A stretch of 41,616 nucleotides of DNA from a bacterium (GTDB taxonomy: Bacteria > Hydrothermota > 32-111): the NCBI GenBank assembly GCA_050239825.1, contig JBFXGO010000021.1:1-41616 (forward strand), in the 5' to 3' direction. Of the stretch, positions 21,001 to 30,000 are shown piece after piece. The position numbers were made by a program. Every line of letters begins with the position of its first letter. The stretch's first letter is position 1.

Positions 21001-24000
21001 ATTAATTTGTCCATAAAAGTCAATATACCCTTATAATAAGTATTAGGCGATTCCAAAATACTTATCTGCCTCTTCTGAAGTTGTCTCTTCTCGGTCCGCC
21101 GTTGCCTCTGCTCTCTTTCGGTCTTGCCTCGTTTACTACGAGGTTGCGTCCCATGACATCCTTCCCGTTCATTGTCTCTATTGCTTTCTTTCCTTCTTCA
21201 TCTGCCATCTCTACGAAACCGAAGCCGCGGGGCTTGTTTGTTTCGCGGTCTTTAATGAGTGTCACTGATGTGACTTCGCCGAAAACCTCAAATTCTCTCT
21301 TGAGATCTTCTTCTGTGCATGTGTAAGATAGATTACCTACATAAATCTTCATTTGTTCTCCTTTTTGTGTTTTGTGAATATATGGAAATCGCCTAATCTC
21401 ATAATTGGACTGTTTAAGTTTAGTTTAAGGAAGAATTCGAAAGGATATTCCCCGCCAGATTAATAGAGGCTTCAAAAACCATCAAACCACTTCCGAGATT
21501 CAAGAACCGAAAAAGTTAAATTTAAAATTCATACAAGGAGATTATATACAAATTTTAAAATTTTTCAAGAGGGGGTATGCTGATTTTGCTTTTTTGCTAA
21601 AATCTGAATAAAACATAAAATCCCGCCGAAAATGTCTGCCTCTTGTCTCCCCTCTTAATATCTTCGCTCCTGACAAATCCTATGTTTAGACCTCCTGTGA
21701 CATTGTTTGAAAAATTGTAATCTGCTCTTGGTTTTACATCAAGCATTGTCCTCTCTTCAAGCACATTCTCATTTGAAATGTCTGTTTCAAGAGATTTTGA
21801 AAATGATATATCTAACCCGGTATTTAAGTTGGATTTGAATTTTATTCTTTTATTGAGAACCGGAACATTTATCCCGGTTGGCGATGAGAAGGAATAGCTG
21901 AGAGAGATGCTGTGTGAAAAGCTTTCACTCTTTCTCACGGTTTCGATTGCCCCAAAATTTGACTGCAAGCTTGTGGTATAGTTGTAATTATAGCTTGCAT
22001 TCATGCCAAAGAGCATAGTGCCATTCACTCCCACTACAGGAAGAAAATCTGCAGATTCCGTGACCCTGTTCGGCACTGAATCCAGCTTCCCGGACTGGGA
22101 GATAGACTTGTTGAAAGAGTTTCTCAGAGAGAGAGACCTGAATGCTTTGTTCAAAAGCACAAGCTCCTCCAAACCGCTTATCTCAAGTGAGAGCGACGGC
22201 CACTTGGTATTTATATCTCTGTTGATGTTATCAGCAAGGCCGGTTGTCGAAACGGATTTTGAGTATGAACCTCTGAGAGAGAGATTGCCAAAATCAACCG
22301 ATGAAGAGAGAGACCTGCTTTCAGATGTGTTTTTTCGGAGGTCGGTCATATCTGAATACATTTCATAGGGAATGGAGTCGGTAAGCCCCAGCTGAAAGAG
22401 AAGAGGCGCTCTTGAAGAGACATACGAGTATGAATTTGCGTTTGATTTTGAATAACTGTAATTCAGAGGAGTGAATTTATTTGTAAAGGATTCCAAATAC
22501 TTTGCAATCCACGGCGGGCTCATAACTATCGCTGAAGAATCTTTCGCTTCATCTCTTAAACCCATAATCCAAGAAAGAATAAACGGATAATCGAAAAAAC
22601 CGCCCAGCGAGAATCTGCCGTTATTAGCAAAGTCCGTAATATTGTAAGGGTCATCGGTGACAATCAGGTTTTGATTGTTCCTTTCATTATATGAAGTATT
22701 AAGGTTTAAATTGTGAGTAAAAAATTTCACGAAGACAGGGTTGTACTGCACTGCAATGTTGTGATTCTTTCCCGTTTCAAGTCCGAGCATGCTCAATCTG
22801 CCATCTCCTTCATAGGCAAGGTCGTTTGTTCTCTGCTCGGAAAAAGTCAAGTTGAGAGACCTGAATATCTTATATGAGGTTGACAGAGAGCGGCTGACGG
22901 TCTTGTTATCGGTTGAACCCACCTTTACAAATCCGGTATCACCCAGAATGAATGATGAGGATGAATTCTTGTTAAATCCAGCCGAATAGGAAAATTGTGA
23001 AGGAACAGGATAAAACTCCATTCTATTAAAGAGCTTCAAACTCTTCACAGCAGGAGTGAGCGAATATGATCCGCTGAATGAGTGGGCATTTGTAGTATCA
23101 GTCCTGCTGTATGACATAGAGTTGCCGTTGGAATAACCGTATGAAAAGGAGAGAAGGTCAAGAGTATAATGAAGCACAGGATTGAGAAATCTCTTTGATC
23201 TTCTAAGACTGGCCGAATAGCTTTCGCTGTTTGAATAGGAGCTGTTTTCCGATACTTCCTGACCGGACATCCTGTAATCAGTGCCCACTCTGAAATATGG
23301 CATGTATCGGGAGGGGCTTCTGCTGTATGCCAGCGGAATCGAAATTCCCATGAATTCAGGAATAAGTTTTTCTCCATTAAGAGATGCATTCACTCTGTAG
23401 CCGCTGTTGGTGTTGCCGGATCCGTTTGTCTCATTTATTGTGACAAAGAAAGGATTTCTGTAATTGGCTGAAAATGATACTGCCAAGAATTCCGGAAGAG
23501 AGAATGATGCTGAAATATCCCCTGCTGTTCCAACCTCTCTCTTGGGAGAGAGAAGCATTATATCATCAATCCATACCTCGCTGGTGATGGGAAGATTTGA
23601 ATTATTCATAACAGTGAATTCGACATAGTTGATATTTGTGAGAGAAGGAGCACCTTCATATCCGTACATTCCCTCTTCATATGAGAGAGAACCGGGATGA
23701 CTTCGTTTTATCGTAACAAGAGTTTCAAGAGGAATTTCTATGTAAGTCCACTCTTTGACGGGATTGAGTTTCAGATAGTAATAATTGAGAGAATCTCCTC
23801 CGAATTTGAAGTAGAGAGTCAAAGAGTCTGATTCGGTGGATTTGTAATACATTGTAAGCGTTTCATATCTCTCATAAGAATCTTTTATGCTCAAAATTTT
23901 ATAAACCCTTCCCCCCTCTCCGTGAAAGAGATTGTTGTTGTAAAGAACCATAGATTGCTCTCTCTTGGATTTTCCCGAATAATCTGTGCCCGGGTCATAC

Positions 24001-27000: not shown

Positions 27001-30000
27001 ATAGAGCCAAACAATAGCAACAGTACCAAATATCTTTTTTTCATCTAATTGTTTATCAGCCTTTTTAAAACAACTATCTCTTTTTCAAAATCTTCATAAT
27101 TGCCGGGGACTTCGAGAATCATAGGAATATCTTTGAACCTCTTGTCATTCATAAGATATGCAAATGCATCCTGCCCGATAAAACCTTTGCCTATGAATTC
27201 ATGCCTGTCCTTTCTTGTGTTGAATTCATTCTTTGAATCATTTAGATGAAAGAGTTTCAATCTTTTGATGCCGATTATTCTGTCAAAAGCATTCATTGTC
27301 TCTTCGTAAGAAGATTTTGTCCGTATGTCATACCCTGCGGCAAAAGTGTGGCATGTGTCGTAGCAGACAAAAAGCCTCTTATTGCTCTTAACTGCGGATA
27401 TAATATCGCGGAGATGCTCAAATCTCCATCCGACGGATGTACCCTGACCGGATGTCGTCTCCAGAAGTACATTTCCGCTCTCTGTCTCTTTAAAAATAAT
27501 GTTTATGGCTTCTACAATTCTCCTGACGCCAAGACTCTCTCCGATTCCGAGGTGGGAACCGGGATGAAGGACAATGTCATCTATTCCGAGTCTTTCTCCC
27601 CTCTTTAAGTCATCAATCAGTGATGATATCGATTTGTTGAAAATTGTCTCATCCAATGACGCAAGATTTAGAAGGTAGGAAGCATGTATGCCGATATACT
27701 TCACTTTCGATTCAAATAAGCTCTTTTTGAAGTTTTCACATACTGATTTTTCAAGAGGTTTGCTCTCCCATTGCCTTTGATTTTTGGCAAATATCTGAAT
27801 TGCTTCGCAGCCGATTCTATCGGCCGCGAAGAACATTTCAGAATATCCTTCAGAGACGCTCAAGTGAGCGCCCAGTATAGGCATTGCTGGGTATCTCCTT
27901 ATTTCCTTTTCAAGGCTTCCCTGTATGAGTCCCAAGTGAGAAGCTCTTTCTTTATCTCTTCCACCTGATTGTCGCCCGGTCTAAGAGCAAGCCATACATT
28001 CAAAAGTTCGAGAAGAATCATCGGCTCTGTCTTCTGCATATACATAAATCCTATAGTGGAGCCCAGTCTTTCAGGGTCTGTTTTCAAAAGAGAAACAACC
28101 GAATTGTAAGCGGCTGTGTCGGCTGTCTCTCTGTATATTTTCAAAAGCCCTGAGTAGCCCATTCCCTCTTTGGGAAACATTCCTGTAATCTCTATATAAA
28201 AGTTCAGTGCCTTGCCGTAATCGCCCTTCTCAAGGTTGATTTCTGCAAGCATCGCTTTGAGCATAATCTTTTTTTCTTCATTCAATTCCTGACTCAATGC
28301 ATCGGAAAGCTCCTTTTCTGCTTCATCATACCTTTCAAGGTCAAGGAGAAATCTGGAAATCTGCATTGTCACGGAATTTCTGTCATACACATAGAATTTT
28401 CTTCCCTGCCTCAGGTACTCCACGGATAGTTCAAGAGATTCAAGCTGAGCATAGTGAAGACCCAACTGCAGAAATCCTGCAGCATAATTTGTCATGATTC
28501 TGTCGATATTGTCATCCTTCTTGATTTTTTCATTTAGAATGTAGTCGTATTTGTAGACATCGAGTATGTTGCGCTTTGTTGTTTCAACATCAATCAAACT
28601 GGGATAATCTTCTGCCTCCTTCGTGCCTATTATCCTGTATGCAAGACCCTCAAGAAGCGCATTTTTCCTATAGGGAGAACGAGCATCTTCGGAAACCGTG
28701 ACTGAAAAATAGACATTTATTGAATCGCCCCTGTAGTTGTCCAAAACAAGCTTTTTGAAATTTTCATTGCTTGCATACAGAAGATGCCTTTCTGGTTTCA
28801 TGCCGGCAGAAGCGCATATAATGCTTCGTATGATTATATCCCTAATGTAAAGCACCTCATTGTTTTCAAGCCGCACGGGAACAAGTTTATCTATTTCCGA
28901 ATCACTGAGTCCGATTGGAACTCCATAGGAGCGCATCTGTTTGATATACCATGGAGTATTAAGCAGAGAGAGATTGCACACCATGACACCGGTCTTGTTT
29001 TTTCTGTCAAGCACTCTGTAATTTTTCACAATCTGTTCAAACCAGAGAGGATAAGTGTCATTGTCTCCGTTTGTGAAAACCACAGCATTGTCCTTCGGAG
29101 TGTCCAGCATATTTTTGGCATACTCATCGGCAATCCAGTTGTTTCTTCTGTTTACATTGGAGTTGATGTTTGCAAATAGAGGGGTCACAGCCAAAACCGC
29201 AAGGAGAATTATGGAGACAACCTGCATTCCGGAAAGCAGGAATCCCTCCCTCTTCTTTTTCTTAAGAGAAAGAATCAGCTCTCTCACGCCAAATGCGAAA
29301 AAGAACATAAACATGAAATATGAAGGAGCGTAAAAATAGTCTCTCTCCCTCACCTCTCTCTCAATATGCTTCGGATTCATGTCGGATGGGGAATATTTGA
29401 GATTAAGATATGTCACCAGCCCGGCAGACAGGAGAAGAAAAATGATGAATATGAGAATGAATGTCTTCTTCTCTCTCCTGTAGTGCATATAAATGCCGTA
29501 TAATCCGGTTGCGCTCACGAGAGCCATAAACAGTGATGAGAGTATTTTCACCAGAGCGGATGGCTGAAAAACCTCGGCTCTGAAGAAGGGAGAGAACTGC
29601 CATGAATAGTATTTAAAATACATTTTGAACTGCTCTGCCATTGCGCTTATGGTGCCGATGCCGTAATCGGTCTTTCTCGGAAGTATGTTCATCGGACCGT
29701 ACTGCTTTCTGTTGAAGACATCCCAAAGCTCCTTCATTGTAATGGGAGCGGCAATGTTAATGTAAGGATTATGTTTGGCTCTGATTATCAGAACTGCATA
29801 GGTTGATATTGAGACAAATATGAGAAGAATGTAAACTCCAAGATAGGAAAAAACCTTCACATAGTTGACTCTTTTGGCTTTGTTCATTGAATCTATAACC
29901 ACTACCGAAATAACAGCCAGGAAGATTCCGAGAATCAAAAGTCCGAGCACCTCTTTTGTCATAGCAAGATACATGAAAGCAAAGAAAATCGAAAATGCTA

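Follow-up and report, generated by a model that had tools for sequence, protein, structure and literature searches.

A predicted type IX secretion outer-membrane module with no detectable motor or ring genes in an uncultured WOR-3-type bacterium

The closest described relatives of the locus studied here are the type IX secretion systems (T9SS) of Bacteroidota, known as Gld/Spr in F. johnsoniae and Por in P. gingivalis, together with the solved F. johnsoniae SprA-PorV translocon (PDB 6H3I and related entries). For the Bacteroidota that have been studied, one report describes the motor as indispensable to secretion (PMC10994853). The present genome resembles these systems in its SprA/Sov translocon, PorV-family barrels, predicted PorU-like C25 peptidases, PorX-like homologue and cargo with type-A C-terminal sorting domains (CTDs); in contrast, it has no detectable PorL/GldL, PorM/GldM, PorK/GldK, PorN/GldN or PorP/SprF, and its SprA is ~600 aa shorter. 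With the solved translocon it shares SprA sequence homology and a PorV-family partner gene, but the phmmer match between the two SprA proteins (6H3I chain A; E 4.6e-26, 93.6 bits) is confined to two stretches, the best of which spans residues 165-293. The window, meaning the whole 41,616-nt stretch of DNA that was analysed, belongs to a 2.115 Mb genome of 67 contigs that is 98.97% complete and 0.27% contaminated, and its features are collected in Table 1.

Table 1. Predicted genes and domains in the window, with the profile matches on which each assignment is based.
Feature	Coordinates	Strand	Basis
sprA/sov, compact type IX secretion outer-membrane translocon	21597..27044	(-)	1815 aa; TIGR04189 and SprA_N
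nfo (endonuclease IV)	27045..27935	(-)	TIGR00587 310.6 bits; context, not a secretion part
913-aa membrane protein, TMEM260-like glycosyltransferase domain and C-terminal TPR	27899..30640	(-)	PF11028 151.1 bits, weak TPR matches
M14 zinc carboxypeptidase, predicted T9SS cargo, 722 aa, C-terminal sorting domain	2163..4331	(-)	Peptidase_M14 207 bits
Type-A T9SS C-terminal sorting domain (CTD) of the M14 carboxypeptidase	2172..2363	(-)	TIGR04183

The genome-wide survey's note had placed a SprA/Sov translocon in the window, and an open reading frame of 1815 aa is indeed found exactly at 21597-27044 on the reverse strand, where its sequence identifies it as a compact SprA/Sov. In particular, it scores 408.1 bits against the whole-protein equivalog profile TIGR04189 (cut-off 200) and 45.9 bits against Pfam SprA_N (cut-off 27), and its orthologues, from sources named WOR-3 or Stahlbacteria, are ~1810 aa long and 50-83% identical. 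SprA proteins across the phylum measure 1800-1960 aa, as against ~2400 aa for the typical giant single-chain barrel; the deficit of ~600 aa corresponds to many scattered insertions of 25-70 aa in the long forms, with no single domain gone.

The other outer-membrane components named in that note were largely recovered as well. All eight of its C25 peptidases were found again as Peptidase_C25 matches, on ORFs of 1037-1497 aa, but its description of them as PorU-like holds only in part, with four of the eight matching the PorU model NF033707 and none reaching the 420-bit cut-off. The best of these (C50:9862-13536, the prefix denoting the contig) scores 258.2 bits over profile positions 9-734 of 1095, a second (C18:21001-25494) scores 181 bits, and two more score 57-68 bits; on these profile matches, two of the eight are probably PorU-like, and the C25 domain itself is clear. 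The PorV/PorQ-family barrels are represented by C7:974-2035, with 204.7 bits on the family model NF033709 (cut-off 90), and by weaker paralogues at C50:120455, C18:20024 and C49:7776; membership is at family level only, since the score on the PorV equivalog NF033710 is 129 against a cut-off of 250. Moreover, the reported PorX regulator corresponds to a PorX-like homologue with receiver and PglZ domains at C22:33919-35496. Where the note counted 54 genes with a type-A sorting domain, a six-frame search with TIGR04183 gives 72 matches at E<=1e-3, of which 68 lie above the cut-off, compared with matches in 0 of 14 control genomes; they fall mostly on long intact ORFs, peptidases included, and one is on a C11 clostripain.

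The absence of motor and ring genes reported by the survey was reproduced in this genome. The GldM model TIGR03517 and the GldN model PF19841 have no match at E<=10, the best scores are 12.1 bits for GldM_1st (PF12081) and 13.8 bits (E 0.14) for GldL_N (PF22827), and the best GldK match of 79.8 bits, against a cut-off of 350, falls on three FGE-type genes; for GldL and GldN, Pfam models were used here in place of TIGRFAMs. PorP_SprF (PF11751) reaches 16.2 bits (cut-off 22.3), and three control genomes also match it below the cut-off. The weak GldK, GldL_N, GldM_1st and PorP matches are all mirrored in T9SS-free control genomes, with none above cut-off, and by these profiles PorK/L/M/N and PorP are undetectable. 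The positive control that the survey had wanted was supplied by Bacteroidota genomes, all from one class-like group, in which GldM (331-450 bits), GldL_N and GldN (198-261 bits) were each found in 5 of 5 and GldK (526-529 bits) in 2 of 2. Further, model sets derived from Bacteroidota still detect SprA, PorV, PorU and CTDs at this evolutionary distance.

The same pattern extends over the phylum. SprA is present in 244 of its 251 sampled genomes (179 of the 180 high-quality ones), spread over 103 of 104 genera and with its reading frame intact at about 1800-1960 aa, while GldM, GldL_N and GldN are each found in 0 of 251, as is GldK at E<=1e-40; SprA without detectable motor or ring genes is thus a phylum-wide pattern. 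Loss of a four-gene operon in an assembly gap is possible with 67 contigs and unlikely, because the genome is 99% complete, and the count of 0 among 251 speaks against it. Nor is the pattern special to WOR-3. In the sample of the control phylum, Bacteroidota, SprA occurs in 80 of 101 genomes and GldM in 26, leaving 54 genomes, with completeness and taxonomy not given, that are SprA-positive and GldM-negative; among 20 of these that were tested, GldL_N and GldK were found in none, so that SprA without detectable GldK/L/M is the majority state of this sample too. These genomes resemble the present one in that combination but differ in carrying a full-length SprA of 2250-2750 aa. One such group has a conserved gene of 521-540 aa after sprA in 4 of 4 loci, and the one copy scanned has receiver and PglZ domains like PorX.

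The explanation that best fits these results, and to which we give about even confidence, is that SprA, the PorV-family barrels, the PorU-like C25 peptidases, the PorX-like regulator and the ~70 CTD proteins constitute a T9SS outer-membrane module, with no PorL/PorM, PorK/PorN or PorP. Its parts differ in strength: PorKLMN homologues are, on evidence that comes entirely from sequence methods, probably truly absent, and the module is, almost as probably, a working secretion route, while a specifically motor-free mechanism, drawn by analogy, falls at or somewhat under an even chance. By extension from the Bacteroidota system, Sec would carry the cargo over the inner membrane and the cargo would fold in the periplasm; a PorV-type barrel would capture the cargo CTD at SprA; the cargo would exit through SprA together with PorV; and a PorU-like C25 peptidase would then cut off the CTD, perhaps with attachment of the cargo to the surface. 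No dedicated inner-membrane motor would take part, and the process would owe its direction to the capture of the CTD and to the irreversible removal of the CTD by cleavage. Such a route contradicts the only experimental model, because the motor is essential there (PMC10994853). The survey's proposal of a motor-less T9SS is partly supported, in that PorK/L/M/N remain undetectable with controls and throughout the phylum, but the arrangement is less special than had been assumed, and the substitute motor that was suggested with it, considered below, is not supported.

An unrecognised energy source, an analogue of PorLM and not a homologue, could instead drive SprA from among the unannotated membrane and periplasmic genes. 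The dependence of transport on a motor in the experimental system, as stated in PMC10994853, argues for such a source; missing homologues say nothing about analogues, and many ORFs have no family match (14783-16612 and 18288-19625, for example). However, the conserved genes beside sprA in 17 WOR-3 loci and 8 control-phylum loci include none that is motor-like; what is found there is housekeeping genes, a gene of ComEA type or PorX. Two heuristic topology scans for a bitopic GldM-like protein encoded after a GldL-like membrane protein produced no pair that was credible (one of them returned 23 pairs, PilN/PilO-like and ExbD/TonB pairs among them), and PF01618 finds a single MotA/ExbB-family gene in the genome, the exbB on contig C61. 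An unrelated motor is unlikely, although it is the strongest of the alternatives.

True homologues of PorK/L/M/N that have diverged beyond the reach of sequence profiles are less likely again. GldM evolves fast, with only 21-27% identity between Bacteroidota orders, so that a distant homologue could escape HMMs; the controls come from one group, and the control phylum has two other groups with SprA in which the models likewise find nothing, so that the reach of the models may be limited. The 54 GldM-negative genomes accordingly admit two interpretations: they may support the motor-less module, or they may indicate that the models do not reach beyond one group. Against divergence, eight signature motifs, drawn from invariant transmembrane and C-terminal parts of GldL and GldM, are retained by 5 of 5 controls from several orders and match nothing here. 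Purpose-built HMMs, each based on 3-5 Bacteroidota sequences of its family and applied unfiltered, had no match below E 0.05 among 21,867 six-frame ORFs (best E: GldL 0.057, GldM 0.2, GldN 0.7 and PorP 2.6), and GldK, GldL, GldM and GldN are each found in 0 of 251 phylum genomes. A protein-language-model search for look-alikes of GldM and GldL beyond their Pfam families returned none at >=0.9 and none outside Bacteroidota and Archaea. Moreover, the three GldK-like matches are bitopic FGE-domain proteins, two of which flank a kinase/PP2C operon on contig C3.

The survey had further proposed that the ExbBD/TonB set beside a DUF4388/PATAN gene energises SprA-PorV export. Its exbB-exbD-exbD-tonB order on C61 was confirmed; its role as a substitute motor is unlikely, slightly more so than diverged homologues. 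GldLM and ExbBD have a common 5:2 motor architecture, and TonB-ExbB-ExbD, like the T9SS motor, is a proton-driven inner-membrane system reaching the outer membrane. It is the only such family in the genome and occurs in 120 of the 121 phylum genomes that are >=90% complete. To our knowledge, however, ExbB is near-universal in diderm bacteria, and its presence therefore does not discriminate. The operon is canonical, with a TonB_C domain, and has four Plug-domain receptors in the genome as ordinary clients, whereas a Pfam scan finds no Plug domain in SprA. Its gene context is one of SusC-like TonB-dependent receptors and not of sprA, porV or porU: among seven loci of relatives that held exbB, 3, all from other families, carry the orthologue of the SusC-like receptor found here after the operon, and no conserved link between exbBD-tonB and T9SS genes was found. 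The PATAN gene adjoins the operon in only 2 of the 7, which both belong to the family of the window itself, and this adjacency is family-specific synteny. As the SprA motor, the set is unsupported, being the sole MotA/ExbB-family motor, with four Plug-domain clients and a SusC-like context.

That the SprA, PorV and CTD genes form no working route here, being relics or with the tailed proteins exported in some other way, would agree with the lack of a PorU-like protein at the equivalog cut-off (258 against 420 bits) but is very improbable, because the conservation of SprA (intact in 244 of 251 genomes and 103 of 104 genera) and of the CTDs, mostly on long intact ORFs, does not fit decay.

Under the preferred reading of an outer-membrane module, an uncultured WOR-3-type bacterium and nearly all of its sampled relatives would possess the outer-membrane half of a T9SS, with dozens of tagged cargo proteins, and lack the genes for the motor and ring that are believed to drive such a system. 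Literature searches found no paper describing a motor-less outer-membrane T9SS of this kind. A wider, tentative proposal, which we rate below even, is that the PorLM motor and PorKN ring were a late addition on one class-level branch of Bacteroidota, and that the ancestral and far more widespread T9SS was motor-less, consisting of SprA, PorV, a PorU-like peptidase and CTD cargo; WOR-3 would have kept this form, as would the two other groups with SprA in the Bacteroidota sample. If so, the export of proteins through the outer membrane via SprA needs no inner-membrane energy input.

Elsewhere in the window, the CTD of the M14 carboxypeptidase, which is among the genome's 72 matches, is marginal, with a TIGR04183 score of 22.5 bits (23.2 with adjacent in-frame matches) against a cut-off of 23 and an E of 2e-4. 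The ORFs at 14783-16612 and 18288-19625 lie near sprA and match no family. The stop of nfo abuts the start of sprA, and the TMEM260-like gene lies two genes upstream of sprA as part of the same context; the nfo-sprA order and a TMEM260-like gene adjoining sprA each recur in 3 of the 17 loci, in the window's own family only.

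The genome that carries sprA/sov amounts to 2.115 Mb in 67 contigs, with 98.97% completeness and 0.27% contamination; the window is one of these contigs, C36, in its full 41,616 bases. Scored against the NCBIfam equivalog model for Sov/SprA, the sprA reading frame reaches 408.1 bits, where the cut-off is 200; Pfam SprA_N gives 45.9 bits. A direct sequence match of the encoded protein to the solved SprA of F. johnsoniae (6H3I) has an E-value of 4.6e-26. The protein's nearest relatives, labelled at source as MAG proteins of candidate division WOR-3 or of Stahlbacteria, are 50-83% identical and ~1810 aa long; remoter relatives, with the source names Cloacimonetes, Gemmatimonadales and Rhodothermales, have lengths of 2000-2700 aa. 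The ~600 extra residues of the long forms are scattered over many insertions of 25-70 aa, and no single domain is missing from the window's SprA in comparison with them. In one WOR-3 genome, a 3184-aa ORF with a SprA match has two shorter neighbours that also resemble SprA (532 and 763 aa); the three may represent a fused or duplicated translocon.

The T9SS inventory drawn up in the genome-wide survey's note was recovered in full, as SprA, C25 peptidases, PorU-like proteins, the PorV family, a PorX-like protein and cargo with the type-A C-terminal sorting domain (CTD) are all present. All eight Peptidase_C25 genes are real (1037-1497 aa); the PorU sortase model matches four of them, each below its 420-bit cut-off, with the two not tabulated scoring 57-68 bits. 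The PorV/PorQ-family barrel on contig C7 has weaker paralogues in the genome, one directly downstream of the PorU-like gene on contig C18. This downstream barrel, of 326 aa, resembles PorV/PorQ faintly (19.8 bits), and the 1497-aa PorU-like C25 protein runs into its start; together they may make up a second pair of sortase and carrier, comparable to PorU2/PorV2. The tailed proteins are also present as noted, at a different count: 54 genes in the note versus 72 six-frame matches at E<=1e-3 here, 68 of them above the cut-off, with matches in 0 of 14 control genomes. Besides the window's M14 zinc carboxypeptidase, the matches include a C11 clostripain. On contig C50, a SusC-like TonB-dependent receptor is encoded in one locus with an unknown protein of 1055 aa, a 350-aa barrel weakly resembling PorV and a tailed C11 clostripain; the locus looks like one for protein utilisation, in which T9SS cargo is paired with an uptake receptor.

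Coordinates of the features discussed, in the window unless a genome or contig is named
Feature	Position	Strand	Detail
M14 zinc carboxypeptidase with sorting-domain match	2163-4331	-	
Complex-I / Mbh / Mbs-like operon	5490-13772	-	
RRM RNA-binding protein gene	21062-21352		
sprA/sov	21597-27044	-	1815 aa
TMEM260-like membrane glycosyltransferase domain (N-terminal) and TPR repeats (C-terminal)	27899-30640	-	913 aa
Y-family (impB/mucB/samB) polymerase gene	37825-38997	-	after LexA
LexA repressor gene	39269-39898	-	
PorV/PorQ-family barrel	C7:974-2035		204.7 bits, cut-off 90
PorU-like C25	C18:21001-25494		PorU model 181 bits
PorU-like C25 and 326-aa barrel (L191)	C18:20024-25494		
Homologue of PorX-like receiver+PglZ protein	C22:33919-35496		
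PorU-like C25	C50:9862-13536		PorU model 258 bits
SusC-like receptor (CarboxypepD_reg + Plug)	C50:114136-117267		
Receptor-to-clostripain locus (L215)	G000 (window's genome), C50:114136-123433		
SprA-like ORFs of one WOR-3 genome (L180)	G229:C1:209000-228900		

Current models of type IX secretion, which to our knowledge all come from Bacteroidota, place the proton-driven PorLM/GldLM motor, together with the PorKN ring, at its essential core. The note had described GldK, GldL, GldM and GldN as undetectable here, from searches that lacked a positive control. Bacteroidota genomes, obtained by a scan for the CF319a 16S probe, now supply that control: the curated models find GldM there (331-450 bits), GldL_N (98-112 bits) and GldN (198-261 bits), each in 5/5 controls, and GldK in 2/2 (526-529 bits). 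In the window's genome, the GldM model has no match at E<=10 and the GldN model has none; the best scores are 13.8 bits for GldL_N, 12.1 bits for GldM_1st, 16.2 bits for PorP_SprF (versus 22.3) and 79.8 bits for GldK (versus 350). In the four runs with these weak matches, T9SS-free genomes were matched too, none above the cut-off. The GldK matches fall on three FGE-domain proteins, which were rejected as GldK because they are bitopic membrane proteins and two of them, on contig C3, flank a kinase/PP2C (phosphatase) operon.

Further, HMMs were built on the controls' own gldK-L-M-N and porP genes and run unfiltered over all 21,867 six-frame ORFs of at least 40 aa, where the best E-values were 0.057 (GldL), 0.2 (GldM), 0.7 (GldN) and 2.6 (PorP). 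Eight signature motifs, taken from GldL and from the N-terminal helix of GldM, occur in 5/5 controls from several orders and have no match in the window's genome. Curated models, new HMMs and motifs agree with the note that the four proteins are undetectable. Two scans of predicted topology, which looked for a bitopic protein encoded after a small membrane protein, yielded no credible GldL/GldM-like pair; they carry little weight because their crude hydropathy predictor missed one helix of the two in GldL of one control. In the ESM Atlas, no look-alike of GldM or GldL from beyond their own Pfam families reached 0.9. The GldM profile, searched against a set of 5.8 billion proteins, returned only Flavobacteriaceae among the best 120 listed matches, making this search uninformative on distant lineages.

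The same pattern extends across the phylum. In one evenly drawn sample of 251 genomes from 104 genera, 180 of them of high quality, SprA occurs in 244 genomes, 179 of the high-quality ones and 103 genera, with an ORF of ~1800-1960 aa where complete; GldM, GldL_N, GldN and GldK were each found in 0 of the 251, an absence that refers to the genomes searched. As judged by searches with working controls, motor and ring are undetectable phylum-wide, and the apparently motor-less T9SS of this genome is one case of a broader pattern rather than a peculiarity. WOR-3 bacteria are best read as possessing an outer-membrane T9SS that lacks the motor; the main doubt is whether a motor analogue, or an extremely diverged PorKLMN homologue, escaped detection.

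A sample from the control phylum bears on how far the models reach. Among 101 genomes from the phylum of G251, a control genome, SprA_N is present in 80 and GldM in 26 (25 above the cut-off); all 26 are also SprA-positive, leaving 54 genomes with SprA and no GldM match. The genomes form groups that recur through the sample. One has both SprA and GldM, two (G283-G352) have a full-length SprA of 2250-2750 aa and no GldM, and one has neither. In 20 genomes of the two SprA-positive, GldM-negative groups, GldL_N (E<=0.01) and GldK (E<=1e-30) were each found in 0/20, and both controls from the SprA+GldM group have GldL_N and GldK. One SprA of the GldM-negative groups is 52.7% identical to a protein source-named Rhodothermales. 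The motor and ring may be confined to one branch of this phylum; equally, the models may reach only that branch. Confinement to one branch is somewhat favoured, because the Pfam and NCBIfam models for SprA, PorV, PorU and the CTD, which were derived from those same organisms, find their targets in WOR-3 and because the invariant motor motifs are absent.

The note had also named an ExbBD/TonB set on contig C61 as a candidate driver of SprA-PorV export. Its gene order is lplA, a DUF4388/PATAN gene, two unknown genes, two small membrane genes, exbB, exbD, exbD and a TonB_C gene, and its exbB is the only MotA/ExbB-family gene in a genome with four Plug-domain receptors. Eight loci were fetched from relatives, of which seven held exbB; the orthologue of this genome's SusC-like receptor directly follows exbB-exbD-exbD-tonB in three of the seven, in other families, and PATAN adjoins the operon in only two, both of the window's own family. 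ExbB by itself does not discriminate, being present in 120 of the 121 phylum genomes that are 90% complete or more. Gene context showed no link between the C61 set and sprA, the proposal gained no specific support, and the set has an ordinary job.

The neighbourhoods of sprA contain no motor-like partner in 17 WOR-3 or 8 control-phylum loci. In 9/17 WOR-3 loci (L167-L175 and L180), sprA is followed by a small ComEA-like gene; the product directly downstream, assigned by reading sequences, is a membrane-anchored helix-hairpin-helix protein of 105-148 aa, whose gene's place is held by an RRM RNA-binding protein gene in the window. The ispA and dxs-like genes precede sprA in ~8/17 WOR-3 loci. The gene order of the window, ftsH-folE-folP-cdaA-DUF2279-TMEM260/TPR-nfo-sprA, recurs in no loci but those of its own family; its TMEM260/TPR gene, two genes upstream of sprA, overlaps nfo. 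In one control-phylum group (four loci), sprA is followed by a PorX-like gene, tsaE, tsaB, a DUF1573 gene and accD. The first of these is conserved in 4/4 loci (521-540 aa), and the one copy scanned has a receiver and a PglZ domain.

A whole phylum keeps the translocon, carrier, peptidase and a very large cargo set, with ~70 tailed proteins in this 2.1-Mb genome, and shows no trace of the motor/ring core. If true, the energy-requiring step is dispensable or solved differently, which bears on the open question of the motor's role in secretion versus gliding, and the origin of the T9SS would move well outside Bacteroidota. The system is also the likely route to the cell surface for many proteases of these uncultured, peptide-degrading bacteria. 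The literature search found no paper on a T9SS in WOR-3 and no statement that SprA/PorV/PorU/CTD occur without PorKLMN; such a variant appears undescribed for WOR-3 and, within the literature searched, in print generally. For Fibrobacter, one study proposes export by a T9SS on the strength of cargo tails alone (PMC6851124); another, in its methods, counts R. marinus and S. ruber among the CTD-positive species (PMC5053529).

Elsewhere in the window, the complex-I/Mbh/Mbs-like operon starts with a 2x[4Fe-4S] protein and NuoD-like, NuoC-like and weak NuoB-like subunits, followed by nine membrane ORFs, which range from 81 to 580 aa. For the three large ones among them (281, 580 and 487 aa), Pfam gives nothing at E<=0.5. 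Against the PDB, the 580-aa ORF has no match at E<=1, and the 487-aa ORF matches 6U8Y chain H no better than E 7.8e-5. The antiporter-like arm in the membrane has diverged to an unusual degree. Between 8000 and 14000, GC is low and AT skew positive, which fits hydrophobic genes on the minus strand. The LexA and Y-family polymerase genes are an ordinary SOS pair.
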